From: Gemmatimonadota bacterium
GTDB lineage: Bacteria; Gemmatimonadota; Gemmatimonadetes; Palauibacterales; Palauibacteraceae
DNA length: 64,000 bases
Direction of reading: 5' to 3'
Assembly: GCA_039589875.1 (NCBI GenBank)
Contig: JBDHGL010000017.1
Location: 5,875 to 69,874 of the forward strand
Position numbers and translations under genes: made by a program. The notes beneath the pieces were generated by a model. It was not told the DNA's origin. It was given only the letters and a program-made list of their open reading frames with translations, and searched no databases. Below are positions 4,752-61,184 of this stretch, piece by piece; position 1 is the stretch's first letter; each line of letters starts with the position of its first letter.

Positions 4752-5626
4752 GCGAGGATAACGGCGTGAACGACGAAGCCCGCATCCTGGTCTCCGTGGA
4801 CGGAGCCGTCGGCACACTGACGCTCAACCGCCCGGAGAAGCTCAACTCCTTCGTCGACACCATGCGTGACGAGCTGGCTGAGGGGCTGGAGAGCCTCGCT
4901 CGGGACGATCGCGTGCGCGCGGTGATCGTAACCGGCCGCGGCCGGGCTTTCTGTACCGGAGCGGACATCCGCTACCTGTCCGAGATGGTCGAAAGCGACC
5001 GGTCGGAGGAGTTTCGCAGCCTCGTCGAGGCGGGGCGGCGAGTGGTCTTGACGATCGCCGAGATGCCCAAGCCGGTCATCGCTGCGATCAACGGCCCGGC
5101 CGCTGGAGGAGGCGCCAATCTGGCGCTGGCCTGCGATCTCAGATGGGCCTCCGATCGGGCATCGATCGGCCAGACGTTCAGCAATATCGGGCTGCACCCC
5201 GACTGGGGGGGAGCCTACTTCGTCCCCCGCCTCGTGGGACCGGCGCGCGCCGCCGAGCTCTTTTTCCTCGGGGAAATGGTGGATGCGCAGACGGCCCTGG
5301 AGATCGGACTGTTGAACCGCGTCGTGCCGCACGACGATCTGATGGATGACGTTCGACAGTTGGCGGAACGCCTTGTTGCCCGACCCGCTCTGGCCGTTCG
5401 GCTGGCGAAGCAGGCGGTTCGACGGAGCCTGGCAGCCGACATCGAGGAGATGCTGCAATACGAACTCGAGGCACAGGCGGCATGCTTCCGCACCGCCGAC
5501 GCCCTCGAGGGAACCCGGGCGTTTCTGGAGAAGAGAGCTCCCCGGTTCGGCGGTCGCTCGGCCGAAGAAGCTTCAGGCGAGAAAGATCTCGCCGCCGCAG
5601 CCGCCGCCGCGGACGAGGCGCGATGA
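4748..5626 (+). CDS. enoyl-CoA hydratase/isomerase
   Basis: Crotonase fold ([37 protein letters not shown]); ATG overlaps thiolase stop (ATGA); track ORF 4613 has a spurious N-extension. Confidence 0.85.
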
Positions 5627-39770: not shown

Positions 39771-40637
39771 GTGCCGGACCTCGAGCACGCCCGCTTCAGG
39801 GCGACAATCCAATACGACGGCACGGCCTTTCGAGGCTGGCAGCTACAGCCCGACGAGCGCACCGTCCAGGGCGTCGTCGAAGACGCACTCTCCCGTCTCC
39901 TTCCCACCCACCAGGGGACCACTGCCGCCGGACGAACCGACGGTGGAGTCCATGCCGCGGGCCAAGAGATCGCTTTCGAGGCTCCCGACGTCCGGCAACC
40001 GAAGGAACTCCGCCGCGGTCTGAACGCCCTGCTTCCGGAGGACGTCTGGATCCCGCGGCTTGGTTACGCGGAGGAGAGCTTCCACCCGCGCTTCGACGCA
40101 ATCGCCCGGCGCTATGAGTATCTCGCGAGCGACACGGGCGACCTCACCTCGCCGCTCATCAGAGACCGGGTCTGGCAGCTGGCGCGCAACGACGCCGAAC
40201 CGGTCGAGGCGGAGCACTTGTCGGAGATCAGCCTGTCGGTCGTCGGAAGAGGGTCTTTCGCGGCGTTCAGCAAGGCGGGGCAACCGAAGCGCGGAACGAT
40301 GTGCGAGGTCAGGCAGGCGATCTGGTCGCGAACTCCGGCAGGTCTCCTGCACTTCACCATCGTGGCGGATCGGTTCCTCCACAGGATGGTACGATACCTC
40401 GTTGCCACACTGATCGAGGTGGCGACAGGTCGCCGCGGCCGCGACGAGCTCGAGCGGCTTCTCGCCGAGGCCGGTGAGGACCCCAGCCGTCCGGTCGAAG
40501 GCGTACGGCCTCCGGTACCCGCTCCAGCCTGGGGGCTCTACCTTACCGGAGTGCGATACGCCGATGGTTGGAACCGGCCGCCCGGAATCCCGGGCTTTCT
40601 CGGCGCGACCCGAACCTCGCGGGCACAGGACGACTGA
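39771..40637 (+). CDS. truA: tRNA pseudouridine(38-40) synthase TruA
   Basis: ATIQYDGTAFRGWQ.. catalytic-Asp region (GRTDGGVHA). Confidence 0.9.
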   Translation: MPDLEHARFRATIQYDGTAFRGWQLQPDERTVQGVVEDALSRLLPTHQGTTAAGRTDGGVHAAGQEIAFEAPDVRQPKELRRGLNALLPEDVWIPRLGYAEESFHPRFDAIARRYEYLASDTGDLTSPLIRDRVWQLARNDAEPVEAEHLSEISLSVVGRGSFAAFSKAGQPKRGTMCEVRQAIWSRTPAGLLHFTIVADRFLHRMVRYLVATLIEVATGRRGRDELERLLAEAGEDPSRPVEGVRPPVPAPAWGLYLTGVRYADGWNRPPGIPGFLGATRTSRAQDD

Positions 40638-40644
40638 ACACGCG

Positions 40645-41983
40645 ATGGTCGCGACCACGGACGGCCGCATGGCCCGGTTTCTGAGCGCACTCGGCGTCAC
40701 TCTCCTGCTGGGCGTCGCGGTCGGCTGGTCCCTGACGACGCAGGGATCCTCCCGCCTGACCGGCGACGACGGCGTCTCGAGCGACGCGCGGCTGAACAAC
40801 TCTGCCCTGGCGACGTCACTGATCGTCGGCGACCCGCCTCCGGCCGGGAACCATGAGCTCGGGGCGGTCGGCCTGCAGAGCGCACAGGACACGACGCGGG
40901 AAGGAAGCCGCGTCACGCCAACCGTTCAGGCCGTCCGCCGGGTGCTTCCCTCGGTGGTCAGCGTCAGCGTCTTTCGGCGAGAGAGGCGGGGAGCGCGAAA
41001 CCTCCTCGAGCTGTTCGGTCCTTCGCGCGATCGCGTGGTCTCGGGCCTGGGCTCGGGCTTCGCGATCGACAACCAGGGCACGATCCTGACGAACGATCAC
41101 GTCGTGCAGAGCGCCGACTCGGTGATCGTGGTCGATGCGGACGGCCGGACGTTTCAGGCCGCAGTCATCGGTCGGGACGAGCTGACTGACCTGGCCGTTC
41201 TTCGAATCCCTCCGGGACGCATCCCCGCCGCACCGCTCGGCCGTTCCAGCGACCTGATGGTGGGCGAGCCGGCAATCGCGATCGGCAACCCGTATGGATC
41301 CTTCCTCGCCAACTCCGAGGCGACGGTCACGCGCGGCGTGATCTCCGGTGTCGACCGTGATATCCGAGCAACGGGCCAGCGGGATGTGCTGTACGCCGAC
41401 ATGGTTCAGACGGATGCGTCGATCAACCCGGGCAACTCGGGCGGTCCCCTGGTCAATATTCAGGGTGAGGTGATCGGTGTAAACTCCTCTATTTTCTCGA
41501 GTTCCGGAGGATCACAAGGACTCGCCTTCGCGATCCCAATCGACCGGGCCGTCCGGGTCGCACGCGAGCTTCGTGACTTCGGCCGCATCCGCCGCCCGTG
41601 GGTGGGGGCAGATATCGCCACGATCTCCTCCGACACCTTCGTTGCGGTGGCGAGCGTCCGCCGCGTGGCACCCGCCTCGCCGGCGTCACGGGCCGGACTG
41701 GAGGAGAGCGACGTCATCGCTGGTGACCCTCACGGCCGGCATCGCGATCGAGCGAGACCTGGCGGTCGAGAGCGGGGCGCTCATCGTGCAGGTGGAAGGC
41801 GCCCTCGCCCGCCGGACGGGCATTCGGGAGAACGACGTGATCGTGGCGATCAACCGCCGCGAGGTGCGCTCGGCCGAGGAAGCTCGGGATTATCTCGGGG
41901 CCGCGGCCCAGGCCGGCTGGGTCGAGCTCGTTATCAGCCGGAGGGGAGCGACGCTGGTCACCTCCTTCCCGATTCGTCGCTAG
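40645..41983 (+). CDS. htrA: HtrA/DegP-family serine protease with an apparent +1 frameshift in the PDZ region (~41716-41740)
   Basis: Signal/TM N-terminus, trypsin fold with H/D/S triad (TNDHVV, DLAVL, GNSGGPL); PDZ continues in the +1 frame (track ORF 41573..41983) while the original frame runs into Arg-rich nonsense to 42030. Confidence 0.75.
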
Positions 41984-41993
41984 GGCAACGTCG

Positions 41994-43427
41994 ATGCCGG
42001 CCGATCGCGCTCGCTACCCACACCCCCTGATCGACCGGTACGCATCGGCCGAGATGGCCGATCTTTTCTCGCCGACCCGAAAGGCGCTTCTCTGGCGGGA
42101 CCTCTGGATCGCTCTCGCCGAGATCGAGCGCGACCTGGGGGTCGACATCCCCGCCTCGGCGATCGCCGAGATGAAAGAGGCGCGAGACGCGCTGGATCTC
42201 GACCGCGTCGCCGAGCTGGAGGCCGAGCTCCGGCACGATGTGATGGCGCACGTGCATCATTTCGGCGAGGTGGCCCCGGCAGCGCGAGGCTACATCCACC
42301 TCGGCGCGACGAGCGCTTTCGTAGGCGACAACGCCTCGCTCGTTCAGCAGCGGGATGGCCTCACGCTTCTTAGGGAGCGGCTGCTCGGCGTCGTGGCTGC
42401 TCTGACCGCCTTCGCCACCGAGTACCGCACGGTTCCGACGCTCGGTTACACGCATCTCCAGGCGGCCCAGCCGACGACGGTCGGCAAGCGCGCCTGCCTG
42501 TGGCTGCAGGATTACCTGTTCGATTTGGAGGAGATCGACGCCGCCCTTGCCTCCCTGCGGCTGCGTGGGGCACGTGGCACGACGGGCACGGAGGCCACCT
42601 TCCTCGAGCTATTGGGCAGCAGCGACCGGGTCGAAGAGCTGAATCGGCAGTTGGCGGAGCGATTCGGCTTCAAGGGCACTTACGGCGTCGTTGGACAGGT
42701 CTACCCGAGAAAAGTGGATCATCGCCTCCTCTCGGTTCTGGCCGGAATCGGAGCCAGCTCATCCCGCTTCGGCCATGACATCCGCCTGCTGCAGGGTCTG
42801 GGAGAGATCGAGGAACCGTTCGGTGACCGGCAGATCGGTTCATCCGCGATGCCCTACAAACGGAACCCGATGCGCTCGGAGCGGATGTGCGCGCTATCGC
42901 GTCACCTGCACGCCCTGCAGCTCGAGTCCGGCTGGACGGCCGCCGTCCAGTGGCTGGAGCGCTCGCTGGACGACTCGGCATCCCGGCGCATCGTGATCCC
43001 CGAGGCGTTTCTCACGGCCGACGCCGTCTTGCTGATCGGCCACAACGTGGCGGGGGGATTGGTGGTGCACCGGGGGACCATCGAACGCCGTCTCCGCCGC
43101 GAGCTTCCGTTTCTGCTCGCCGAGACTCTGCTCATCGCTGGCGTGCGCGGTGGCGGCGATCGGCAGGAGCTGCACGAGCGAATCCGGCAACACGCCATGA
43201 CAGCCCGCGAGCGACTCGAGGCGGGGCAGACCGAGAGCGACTTCCTGGAGCGCGTGGCCAGCGACGAAGCAATCCCGCTCGATCAGGAAGAACTTCGCGA
43301 GCTGGCCGACCCCATCCGGCTCACCGGCCGGGCGGCGGAGCAGGTCGAGGGTTTCCTCGCCGAACGGGTCGAGCCCGTGTTGGCGGGCGCCGAGGCGCCG
43401 CATCAGCCTGCCAGCCTCCGCGTATGA
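41994..43427 (+). CDS. purB: adenylosuccinate lyase
   Basis: 477 aa fumarase/ASL superfamily (GSSAMPYKRNP signature). Confidence 0.95.
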   Translation: MPADRARYPHPLIDRYASAEMADLFSPTRKALLWRDLWIALAEIERDLGVDIPASAIAEMKEARDALDLDRVAELEAELRHDVMAHVHHFGEVAPAARGYIHLGATSAFVGDNASLVQQRDGLTLLRERLLGVVAALTAFATEYRTVPTLGYTHLQAAQPTTVGKRACLWLQDYLFDLEEIDAALASLRLRGARGTTGTEATFLELLGSSDRVEELNRQLAERFGFKGTYGVVGQVYPRKVDHRLLSVLAGIGASSSRFGHDIRLLQGLGEIEEPFGDRQIGSSAMPYKRNPMRSERMCALSRHLHALQLESGWTAAVQWLERSLDDSASRRIVIPEAFLTADAVLLIGHNVAGGLVVHRGTIERRLRRELPFLLAETLLIAGVRGGGDRQELHERIRQHAMTARERLEAGQTESDFLERVASDEAIPLDQEELRELADPIRLTGRAAEQVEGFLAERVEPVLAGAEAPHQPASLRV

Positions 43428-58703: not shown

Positions 58704-61184
58704 TCAAGCGCCAATCAGGCTCCAACCCCCGTCCGGTTCTACCGCGATGCAGCCCGTGCCTTCCAGATCGGTCCGCCAGATCCGCCTGACGCCCACCGCT
58801 TCCAGCCGATCCACCGTGCTCAGGTGCGGGTGCCCGTAACGGTTCCCTGCGCCCGCCGAGATGAGCGCGAGATCCGCGCCCACCGCTCTCAGCCAGCGGA
58901 GGTTCGACGAGTTCTTGCTCCCGTGGTGGCTCACCTTGAGCACATCGGCGCGCAGGGTGTCGGACGGCCAGAGTTCGACCATACGAGCCTCCTCTGCAGC
59001 CGGTGCGTCCCCGGCGTTGACGTAGGCAAATCCATCACCGACTCCGATCCGCAGGGTAAGGCTGGCATCGTTGGCCCGAATCGGAAGCGGAGAGGATCCC
59101 CCCTGCGGCGCCTCTTCGAAAGAGGCCGCCGGACCCAGTACGAGGAGATCGACCTCGTCGACCCGAAGCCTGGACCCGGGTCTCGCCACGAGCCACGCCG
59201 CACCCTCTTCGGCGACGCGCTGCAGGTGCTCGCGGTAGCGGTCGGTCGGAACGGGCAGCCCGCTGTCCAGGACCCTGCGCACCGGCAGCCGATCGAACAG
59301 GGACGCCGCGCCTCCCACGTGATCCAGATCCGGGTGGGTCAACGCGAAAAGCTCGATCGCGCGGGCCCCGTTGGACAGCAGGAATGGCAGGACGACGCGC
59401 CGGCCCGCATCGGCTCCTCCGAAGCTCGGGCCTGCATCCACGGCGATCCAGCTCCCGCTGCGGGTGCGTACCACCGCGGCGTCCCCCTGCCCCACGTCCA
59501 GTGTGCACACGAGAGTGCGTCCGCTTTCCCACCTGGCCCGCAAGGCGGGAAAAGCCAGAATCAGACCCACCCCCAGACCGATCAACGGGAACGTCCTCCG
59601 GAACCGTCGGCCGCTGGCCAGGAGAACGAGGACGGAAACGAGGCAGCCCACAAGCGTCCACTCGAGGGCTCCCGGACGTCCCACCGACCCGTGGCCGAGC
59701 GGAATCGCGGCGGCCGCCTGGACGAGGGAAAAAAGCCCTCGGATCAGCAGCGTGGAGGCAGCAGCGAAGCTGGCGGCGATCGGCCCGGGCGCGAGAAGGA
59801 CGCCGAGGAGAGCGACGAGAGCCAGCGCAACGAGAGGGGAGCCGAGGAGGCCCGAAAAGACGGAGACCGGGGCGATTCTGTAGAAGTGCCAGGCAGCGAT
59901 CGGGGCGGTCAAGAGAAAGGCTCCGGCGCCCGCCCCGATCATGCGCAGCACCGAGCGCACGGCCTTTCGGGCTTCCTCCCACAGAACCGAGGGACTCTCG
60001 GAAGCCTCGCTCAAAGCGCGGCGGGCGATACGCTCCCCCAACAGAAGACCGGCGAAGCCAGCGAACGAGAGCTGGAACCCGGCATCCAGCAGCGTCAGGG
60101 GATCCGACACGAGCGCGATCAACGCCGCCGCCGCGAGCAGCTCGCTGATCCGAACAGGGCTTCCCCGGGCTCGGCACGCTGCATAGCCGGTGAAGAGCAC
60201 TGCAGCGCGCGCCGCGGCGGGGGGTGCGCCGATCAGAGACACGTAGCCGATTACCAGGGCCGCGGCGGCAAGAAAGCGAGAGCCAGCAACTAGAAACAGA
60301 CCGCTGCCCGCCAGGGCGACGGCGGCCAAAATACCGACATGGAGGCCCGAGATGGCCAACAGGTGAGCTAGCCCTGCGTCGGCGAACGCTCGCGTGGTTC
60401 GCCCATCCAGTCGGCCGCGTTCTGCGAGAAGCAGCGCAACTCCCGCTGGAGCCACATCGGACGGAAGCCGGTTCTCGACTCGATCAATCGCCGCCGCTCT
60501 AGCCGATCGAAGGATGCCCAGTCCCGGCAGCGAAATCGAGAGACCTCCATCCGTCGACTCGGCAGCTCCAGCACCAATGGACCCACGAACGAAACCACGA
60601 CGCTCGGGACGCGTCGGCCACGCCCCCGGCTGACCGTAGGGCAGCCACTGGCCGCTGAGCTCGATCTCCGCGCCGGCAGGGAGACTTTTGGCGGGCCGCC
60701 GGGCGCGGACGGAAACCTCCTTGATTCGGCACGTTCCGGCTGACGCTCTGATGATCGAATGGAGCACCACGAAGCGCGCGGAACGGTCGATAGCCGCCTC
60801 GCCCTGCCGGCCGGCAAGCCCCGACGCGAGCCGACCGCGGAGCTCTACATTGTCGCCGGGCTCGAGGTGGCGAAGGCAGCTCGTCCGGGCGACGGCCCCG
60901 GCCCTCCGACCACCCAAAAGACCGGCCGAGAGCGAAGCGCTCAGCAGCAGAATGATCGGAAGCCATCGCGTGCGTTCCGGTGCGGCTCGGAGCGCAAACC
61001 CTCCGGCCAGACCGACGACGCCGGCCAACAGGATCCCGTAGATGATCGCCAGCGAGCCGGGTGCTGAGAGGGTAGTCGAAGTGCGGAGCCCGATCGCGGT
61101 TCCGGCTCCAAGGGCCAAGGCGGAGAGGCTTAGCGGACCGGGGGACAGACGCACGGCCGGGAGCTGAGCCTTGGCCGGCCTCAC
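58704..61184 (-). CDS. comEC: DNA internalisation competence protein ComEC/Rec2 (with C-terminal MBL domain)
   Basis: 826 aa; N-terminal OB/DUF4131, competence TM core, C-terminal metallo-beta-lactamase (LTHPDLDHVGG). Confidence 0.85.
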   Translation of the reverse strand: MRPAKAQLPAVRLSPGPLSLSALALGAGTAIGLRTSTTLSAPGSLAIIYGILLAGVVGLAGGFALRAAPERTRWLPIILLLSASLSAGLLGGRRAGAVARTSCLRHLEPGDNVELRGRLASGLAGRQGEAAIDRSARFVVLHSIIRASAGTCRIKEVSVRARRPAKSLPAGAEIELSGQWLPYGQPGAWPTRPERRGFVRGSIGAGAAESTDGGLSISLPGLGILRSARAAAIDRVENRLPSDVAPAGVALLLAERGRLDGRTTRAFADAGLAHLLAISGLHVGILAAVALAGSGLFLVAGSRFLAAAALVIGYVSLIGAPPAAARAAVLFTGYAACRARGSPVRISELLAAAALIALVSDPLTLLDAGFQLSFAGFAGLLLGERIARRALSEASESPSVLWEEARKAVRSVLRMIGAGAGAFLLTAPIAAWHFYRIAPVSVFSGLLGSPLVALALVALLGVLLAPGPIAASFAAASTLLIRGLFSLVQAAAAIPLGHGSVGRPGALEWTLVGCLVSVLVLLASGRRFRRTFPLIGLGVGLILAFPALRARWESGRTLVCTLDVGQGDAAVVRTRSGSWIAVDAGPSFGGADAGRRVVLPFLLSNGARAIELFALTHPDLDHVGGAASLFDRLPVRRVLDSGLPVPTDRYREHLQRVAEEGAAWLVARPGSRLRVDEVDLLVLGPAASFEEAPQGGSSPLPIRANDASLTLRIGVGDGFAYVNAGDAPAAEEARMVELWPSDTLRADVLKVSHHGSKNSSNLRWLRAVGADLALISAGAGNRYGHPHLSTVDRLEAVGVRRIWRTDLEGTGCIAVEPDGGWSLIGA

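Follow-up and report, generated by a model that had tools for sequence, protein, structure and literature searches.

Why is the HtrA-type protease gene between truA and purB on a Gemmatimonadota contig (JBDHGL010000017.1, GenBank assembly GCA_039589875.1) divided between two reading frames? We addressed this question in a 64,000-nucleotide (nt) stretch of that contig, here called the window, which has a guanine plus cytosine (GC) content of 66% and contains no N. It had been predicted from the letters of the window that the frame is lost inside the PDZ region of an HtrA/DegP protease, and a small duplication, a genuine pseudogenisation, a sequencing indel and a programmed shift were all offered as causes. 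Comparison with orthologous loci leaves pseudogenisation standing and removes the other three from this list. A sequencing indel does not describe the lesion, as 185 nt are missing relative to every ortholog compared. Read from the aligned sequences, the lesion is an out-of-frame deletion of 185 nt, by which the first PDZ domain (PDZ1) loses its C-terminal half, along with the linker to the second (PDZ2); this description is secure. As to its origin, we lean towards a real and very young htrA deletion in the sampled strain or sub-population, with an artefact of assembly or library preparation as the rival to be taken most seriously.

The protease is encoded in frame A, which is open from position 40474 to 42030 and in which the listing of open reading frames (ORFs) and direct reading of the sequence place the real htrA start at the ATG at 40645. 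Its native part (40645..41718, + strand) comprises 358 codons and encodes a putative N-terminal membrane anchor, the trypsin-like domain of the protease and PDZ1 as far as the end of its N-terminal half, ..GLEESDVI. The PDZ-like sequence that begins in this frame after the protease domain, RRPWVGADIATISSDTFVAVASVRRVAPASPASRAGLEESDVI, ends at 41718, where the native frame-A sequence closes with ..VAPASPASRAGLEESDVI. Beyond this point, frame A runs on as an out-of-frame tail of 103 nonsense codons and a stop (41719..42030, +), whose translated part (41719-42027) contains 23 arginine, 21 glycine and 12 proline residues (22% Arg and 20% Gly) and has an isoelectric point of 11.9; the stop codon at 42028-42030 lies 37 nt inside purB, so that the tail overlaps the first 37 nt of that gene. 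The PDZ2 remnant (41720..41983, +; 87 codons and a stop) is severed from the reading frame of the protease and lies in the +1 frame, frame B. Positions 41720-41980 encode the 87 amino acids LVTLTAGIAIERDL...FPIRR, which match Pfam PDZ_6 (E = 2e-7) and PDZ_2 (E = 3.5e-5), and the stop codon at 41981-41983 stands 10 nt before the purB ATG at 41994, as the original prediction had read it. Frame B is open from 41483 and frame A to 42030, and both frames are hence open across the junction. A reference-free profile of GC content by codon position passes from frame A to frame B at approximately 41,710-41,720 and on to the purB frame at approximately 42,000. Over 41719..42030, the GC content at the three codon positions is 0.93, 0.75 and 0.43 when read in frame A and 0.75, 0.43 and 0.93 when read in frame B, and frame A is therefore not the frame that evolved as coding in this tail. 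The predicted change of frame inside the PDZ region is borne out by this crossover and by the tblastn alignments described below.

A protein search with both window parts joined returned P0001, the 461-residue readthrough protein of the contig itself, and a series of Gemmatimonadota proteins of 490-514 amino acids. In a protein alignment, the 11 closest of these proteins (11/11) carry approximately 62 residues that are absent from the window; in P0002, the closest ortholog, the missing residues are LTLDGQPVRGALDWEIGLLDAGVGSEVAVEFRRGGDLRQATLEIEELPSESAERIEALRGLE, between ..DVI and LVTL... By tblastn of P0002, residues 1-356 align with frame 1 of the window (40645-41718) at 86% identity and residues 419-505 with frame 2 (41720-41980) at 90% identity, which places the junction at 41718/41719; residues 357-418 have no match anywhere in the 64-kb window. 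The DNA alignments agree with this, as one clean gap of 185 nt, corresponding to residues 357-418 of P0002, is seen at the junction (41718..41719, +) against L001, the locus of P0002, and against L002, between GACGTCATC and GCTGGTGACCCTC, and an identical gap against three metagenome relatives (L065, L072 and L076). As 185 = 3x62 - 1, the sequence beyond the gap is read in the +1 frame. In a 5.6-kb block that is colinear with L001 at 82% identity, the 185-nt gap is the sole frame-breaking difference; the other indels within genes measure 3 or 6 nt, and two 2-nt gaps are both intergenic. Alignment to orthologs, which had been proposed with the original prediction as the way to find the exact indel, thus located it, although as a point junction and not spread over 41700-41760. 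In L001 and L065, the trinucleotide CTG follows both breakpoints, and a CTG-to-CTG deletion of 186 nt would preserve the frame. Because an additional G has been kept at the junction in the window, a microhomology-mediated deletion cannot be asserted.

Orthologs with the uninterrupted gene, of which approximately 100 were found in the Gemmatimonadota, encode a protein of approximately 500-515 amino acids with protease, PDZ1 and PDZ2 domains. Each of the 48 Gemmatimonadota genome loci that span the site (L001-L043, L045-L047 and L049-L052; metagenome-assembled genomes, MAGs) gave one uninterrupted tblastn segment with P0002, as did each of 43 metagenome loci, and the window holds the only disrupted copy among these site-spanning loci. 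The gene order lexA-truA-htrA-purB-purC-purS is colinear between the window and L001. Upstream of htrA lies an intact truA for a pseudouridine synthase (39771..40637, +; 288-residue ORF), colinear with the PseudoU_synth_1 gene of L001, and downstream an intact purB for adenylosuccinate lyase (41994..43427, +; 477-residue ORF), colinear with the Lyase_1/ADSL_C gene of L001. The order truA-htrA-purB-purC is common to the orthologs across the Gemmatimonadota and is kept even in the loci L060-L063 from JGI metagenomes 3300041074-3300041087, in which HtrA identity falls to as little as 45%. From this shared context, it follows that the compared genes are orthologs and that the two-PDZ state is ancestral. 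P0052, with 45% identity, was considered as a paralog and rejected, as its gene context identifies it as a distant ortholog at the same locus. The presence of lexA and a gene of the NFACT family upstream of truA is confined to the window and its closer relatives.

The identification as an HtrA/DegP protease made in the original prediction holds. The trypsin-like domain in frame A matches Pfam Trypsin_2 (E = 2e-34), and the catalytic triad is formed by His152 (41098-41100), Asp182 (41188-41190) and Ser265 (41437-41439), the codons of which were checked in the sequence. These three residues, with the serine in the GNSGGP motif, are invariant alignment columns across the closest orthologs. The N-terminal hydrophobic stretch FLSALGVTLLLGVAVGW is conserved in the alignment, and the matching region is a helix (residues 6-34) in the model of P0002. 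By orthology, the gene encodes a DegP/DegQ-type HtrA serine protease (S1C), probably periplasmic, and its ancestral build would be an anchor, the protease domain, PDZ1 and PDZ2. Residues 126-496 of P0002 align with solved two-PDZ proteases (the DegP-like 22kg, E = 7e-55; the DegQ-family 6z05, E = 2e-54). Pfam detects two PDZ stretches in P0002 and only PDZ2 in a hypothetical in-frame join of the window parts. A complete C-terminal PDZ domain in the reading frame of the protease is present in the orthologs and absent from the window allele. To describe what has been lost, we used an AlphaFold model of P0002 built on an alignment of 26 sequences, with a mean predicted local distance difference test (pLDDT) score of 77 and scores of 85-95 over both PDZ domains. 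In this model, PDZ1 consists of strands 320-325 and 333-339, helix 344-347, strand 355-359, helix 367-377 and strands 382-389 and 392-399, and PDZ2 begins at residue 417. The loss of residues 357-418 is thus predicted to remove most of strand 355-359, helix 367-377, strands 382-389 and 392-399, and the whole linker between PDZ1 and PDZ2.

How old is the event? Between the window and L001, the protease core has a ratio of nonsynonymous to synonymous substitution rates (dN/dS) of 0.035, with 14, 5 and 117 differences at codon positions 1, 2 and 3, and the whole native 5' part (40645..41718) has a dN/dS of 0.10. The PDZ2 remnant, when read in frame B, likewise has a dN/dS of 0.10, with 8, 4 and 29 differences at the three positions (29/41 at the third). 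No stop codon and no additional indel was found in frame B as further damage. Private amino-acid changes at sites conserved in ten outgroup orthologs number five in the window lineage and eight in the P0002 lineage. On this pattern of substitutions, the PDZ2 remnant is under purifying selection in its own frame. As neither half shows decay, the deletion must have happened very recently, unless it is not biological.

We propose, with a modest preference over an artefact, that the deletion is real and very young. On this reading, 185 bp that encode the C-terminal half of PDZ1 and its connection to PDZ2 would have been lost and the ends joined bluntly at 41718/41719. Ribosomes that start at the usual ATG would then make a product of 461 amino acids, of which 358 are native and 103 basic nonsense, and PDZ2 would remain untranslated. 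Such a product would consist of the putative anchor, the protease domain, 40 residues of PDZ1 and the basic tail of 103 amino acids. It probably lacks function, which we infer from the DegP protein of E. coli, a distant homolog that loses its proteolytic activity when PDZ1 is deleted and in which contacts between PDZ1 and PDZ2' build cages and higher oligomers (review PMC11642142). Removal of the PDZ domain from DegS relieves inhibition and activates the enzyme (PMC11642142). If the allele is real, ribosomes that translate frame A across the purB start may also perturb the translation of purB. In the intact orthologs, htrA and purB are separated by a 10-nt spacer (in L001, from 5518 to 5529), and frame-A readthrough in the window overruns the purB start.

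P0001 is found in both NCBI and JGI, where it is encoded on one contig of 82,954 bp and named 'S1-C subfamily serine protease', and the deposited assembly therefore contains the lesion. In the relatives compared, the deleted segment is not bordered by any repeat as long as an assembler k-mer. With nothing for a k-mer assembler to collapse, reads containing the junction should exist, and the junction is thus probably present in the reads.

Several points weigh against a real, young deletion. The junction may be chimeric or mis-assembled, and no conspecific sequence, whether intact or deleted, was found in the protein, genome or metagenome contig collections. The closest DNA to the window, obtained by protein-guided scans of genome and metagenome contigs, is approximately 82% identical; an exact 24-mer from the left flank had no match in metagenome contigs, and the cluster of the window's own protein has no other member and carries no accessions. 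The total lack of decay in both halves is also what an artefact would produce. Furthermore, htrA is conserved in place throughout the phylum, which makes its loss a priori unlikely unless a paralog compensates. Whether a second intact htrA/degQ exists had been raised as a check in the original prediction, and tblastn of P0002 found no second htrA within the 64-kb window. Lastly, in predicting a loss of function we extrapolate from DegP of E. coli, whereas DegS is instead activated by removal of its PDZ domain.

The alternative that survives best is that the junction arose during assembly or library preparation and that the true genome carries an intact two-PDZ htrA of approximately 505 amino acids, which we regard as a substantial possibility while holding it to fall short of probable. 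Chimeras could have formed among the reads or during amplification, contigs could have been merged wrongly, or the consensus could follow a rare variant path in a mixed population. That the relatives are all MAGs, as is the window lineage, and that the sequence is known from one contig only would fit such an origin, as would the fully functional appearance of both halves (dN/dS 0.04-0.10, no excess of private substitutions) in a gene that is otherwise universally intact. An artefact might also be hinted at by a different deletion of 57 nt in the same half of PDZ1 at the locus L064, which is missing from a close relative and could reflect assembly trouble. On the other hand, a collapse of the de Bruijn graph is not expected where the closest relatives have no k-mer-length repeat beside the deleted segment, the neighbouring 5.6 kb contain no other frame-breaking indel, and a whole-window frame scan that needed no reference revealed no other true frameshift, which argues against an assembly that is generally error-ridden.

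The deletion at L064 deserves its own description. At L064:3560-3660 (MAG GCA_039584275.1, contig JBDGYC010000088.1; protein P0006), comparison with L006:4012-4169 reveals an independent, in-frame deletion of 57 nt (19 amino acids) that, like the one in the window, affects the C-terminal half of PDZ1. Lost with it is RGALDW..NGRI, the predicted long helix, and L006, a close relative, does not share the deletion. This may mean that PDZ1 has been remodelled repeatedly or that assembly has repeatedly gone wrong in the region.

The scan just mentioned was based on GC content by codon position. In its first version, dozens of normal gene boundaries were flagged falsely, and a stricter version missed htrA. 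With a lowered threshold, three places were flagged, namely htrA, which is a true positive, and two that proved on inspection to be false positives. One of these is the intergenic region between the NFACT-family gene and lexA, and the other lies near 60625 in an uninterrupted ORF of 826 amino acids (58704-61184, - strand). This ORF contains many hydrophobic segments and, by eye only, resembles ComEC/Rec2. We give the scan little weight, but what it shows speaks against frameshifts being common in the window.

A stronger form of the biological reading, in which the deletion is not only real but fixed in a natural Gemmatimonadota population whose cells make the truncated protein and tolerate or even benefit from it, seems very unlikely to us. 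Under it, the product might be a deregulated HtrA protease lacking PDZ domains, or the allele might represent an adaptive loss of a housekeeping htrA, and the 57-nt deletion at L064 would hint at recurrent remodelling of PDZ1 in the lineage.

Even less can be said for recoding near 41718, whether by a programmed +1 shift of the ribosome or by slippage during transcription, which would fuse PDZ2 to the protease with its half PDZ1 to give a single-PDZ HtrA of 445 amino acids and which we consider barely credible. The two frames are indeed both open across the junction, and a Shine-Dalgarno-like GGAGGAG is found at 41700-41706. However, the change of frame falls exactly on the deletion junction and is not conserved, since every site-spanning ortholog locus, approximately 100 in all, is read through in a single frame. 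The junction codons GTC ATC GCT GGT GAC CCT CAC contain no in-frame stop, no homopolymer and neither a prfB-type hungry-codon or slippery motif nor another known +1 shift motif, and no stop or slippery motif was found at 41701-41760. GGAGGAG, located 9 nt upstream, merely encodes L-E-E, and L065, an intact ortholog, has it too. In addition, 41300-42300 gave no match to an Rfam element at E <= 1, and shuffled sequences fold at least as well as the 100 nt downstream do (z = +0.63), so that neither a known element nor an unusual fold speaks for recoding. The product of such a shift would, moreover, still hold half a PDZ1.

We give next to no probability to the remaining proposals, a sequencing error or indel of one base and a short tandem duplication within the PDZ region, which the ortholog alignments already refute: the net frame change does equal one base, and two G-x-x-E-x-D-V-I motifs do stand 124 nt apart with a 17-nt match of 88%, but the alignments show 185 bases missing and not one base gained or lost, removal of one base would yield a protein of 445 amino acids that lacks 62 conserved residues, and the two PDZ-like stretches map one-to-one to PDZ1 and PDZ2 of every ortholog. 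The single-base correction to a continuous ORF of approximately 445 amino acids that had been envisaged would therefore not restore the gene, as the ortholog has approximately 505 amino acids and two PDZ domains. Likewise, the apparent partial redundancy of the two PDZ stretches, for which a small duplication had been suggested, is explained by the N-terminal half of PDZ1 and an intact PDZ2. A repeat search found only short matches of 79-88%, at the G-[LI]-x-E-x-D-V-I motif of PDZ1 and PDZ2.

How does the window allele compare with known systems? With the two-PDZ DegP/DegQ HtrA proteases (MEROPS S1C; 22kg, 6z05, E. coli DegQ 4a8a and DegP 1ky9), it shares the putative anchor, the His-Asp-Ser triad and the GNSGGP motif, but it differs from them in that PDZ1 is cut after the DVI strand, PDZ2 is out of frame and a nonsense tail of 103 amino acids follows. 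The predicted product resembles engineered DegP and DegS variants with PDZ deletions in that a protease domain would be left without functional PDZ domains; in contrast to these variants, the window allele adds a half-domain and a basic tail, which are probably destabilising. The resemblance to ordinary deletion pseudogenes lies in the single clean deletion, the change of frame and the long spurious readthrough ORF that is typical of high-GC DNA. As in a pseudogene, conserved coding sequence has been lost (the 185-nt gap, 62 residues) and the frame is disrupted. The accompanying decay of such pseudogenes is missing here, and the allele, if real, would be extremely young. With the +1 frameshift of prfB, which encodes release factor 2 (RF2), the window shares only the +1 direction and the upstream purine-rich GGAGGAG; a stop codon at the shift site, conservation and a suitable spacing are all absent, and GGAGGAG also occurs in the unshifted ortholog.

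The family is well known, and its member in the window is either a disrupted gene of the ordinary sort or the product of faulty assembly; nothing about it is new in kind. Little scientific weight attaches to a single damaged gene for a well-understood protease in the genome of an uncultured member of the Gemmatimonadota, although the deletion, if real, would represent a very young loss of a quality-control protease that is conserved phylum-wide. Of more practical use is what the locus indicates for annotation. P0001 was called as a normal coding sequence, whereas its last 103 residues are out of frame and the PDZ2 remnant is unannotated, and the entry should be flagged as disrupted by curators. 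In high-GC DNA, a frameshift can hide within a long spurious ORF, and what appears to be a one-base frameshift can be a large deletion, so that alignment to orthologs should precede any talk of recoding. A further case may be found among distant homologs. At L121:2501-3432 (Ga0268359_11864), which encodes an HtrA homolog with approximately 40% identity, tblastn aligned residues 88-188 of P0002 in frame 2 and residues 196-406 in frame 1, and this metagenome contig may thus carry another frameshifted htrA-like gene.

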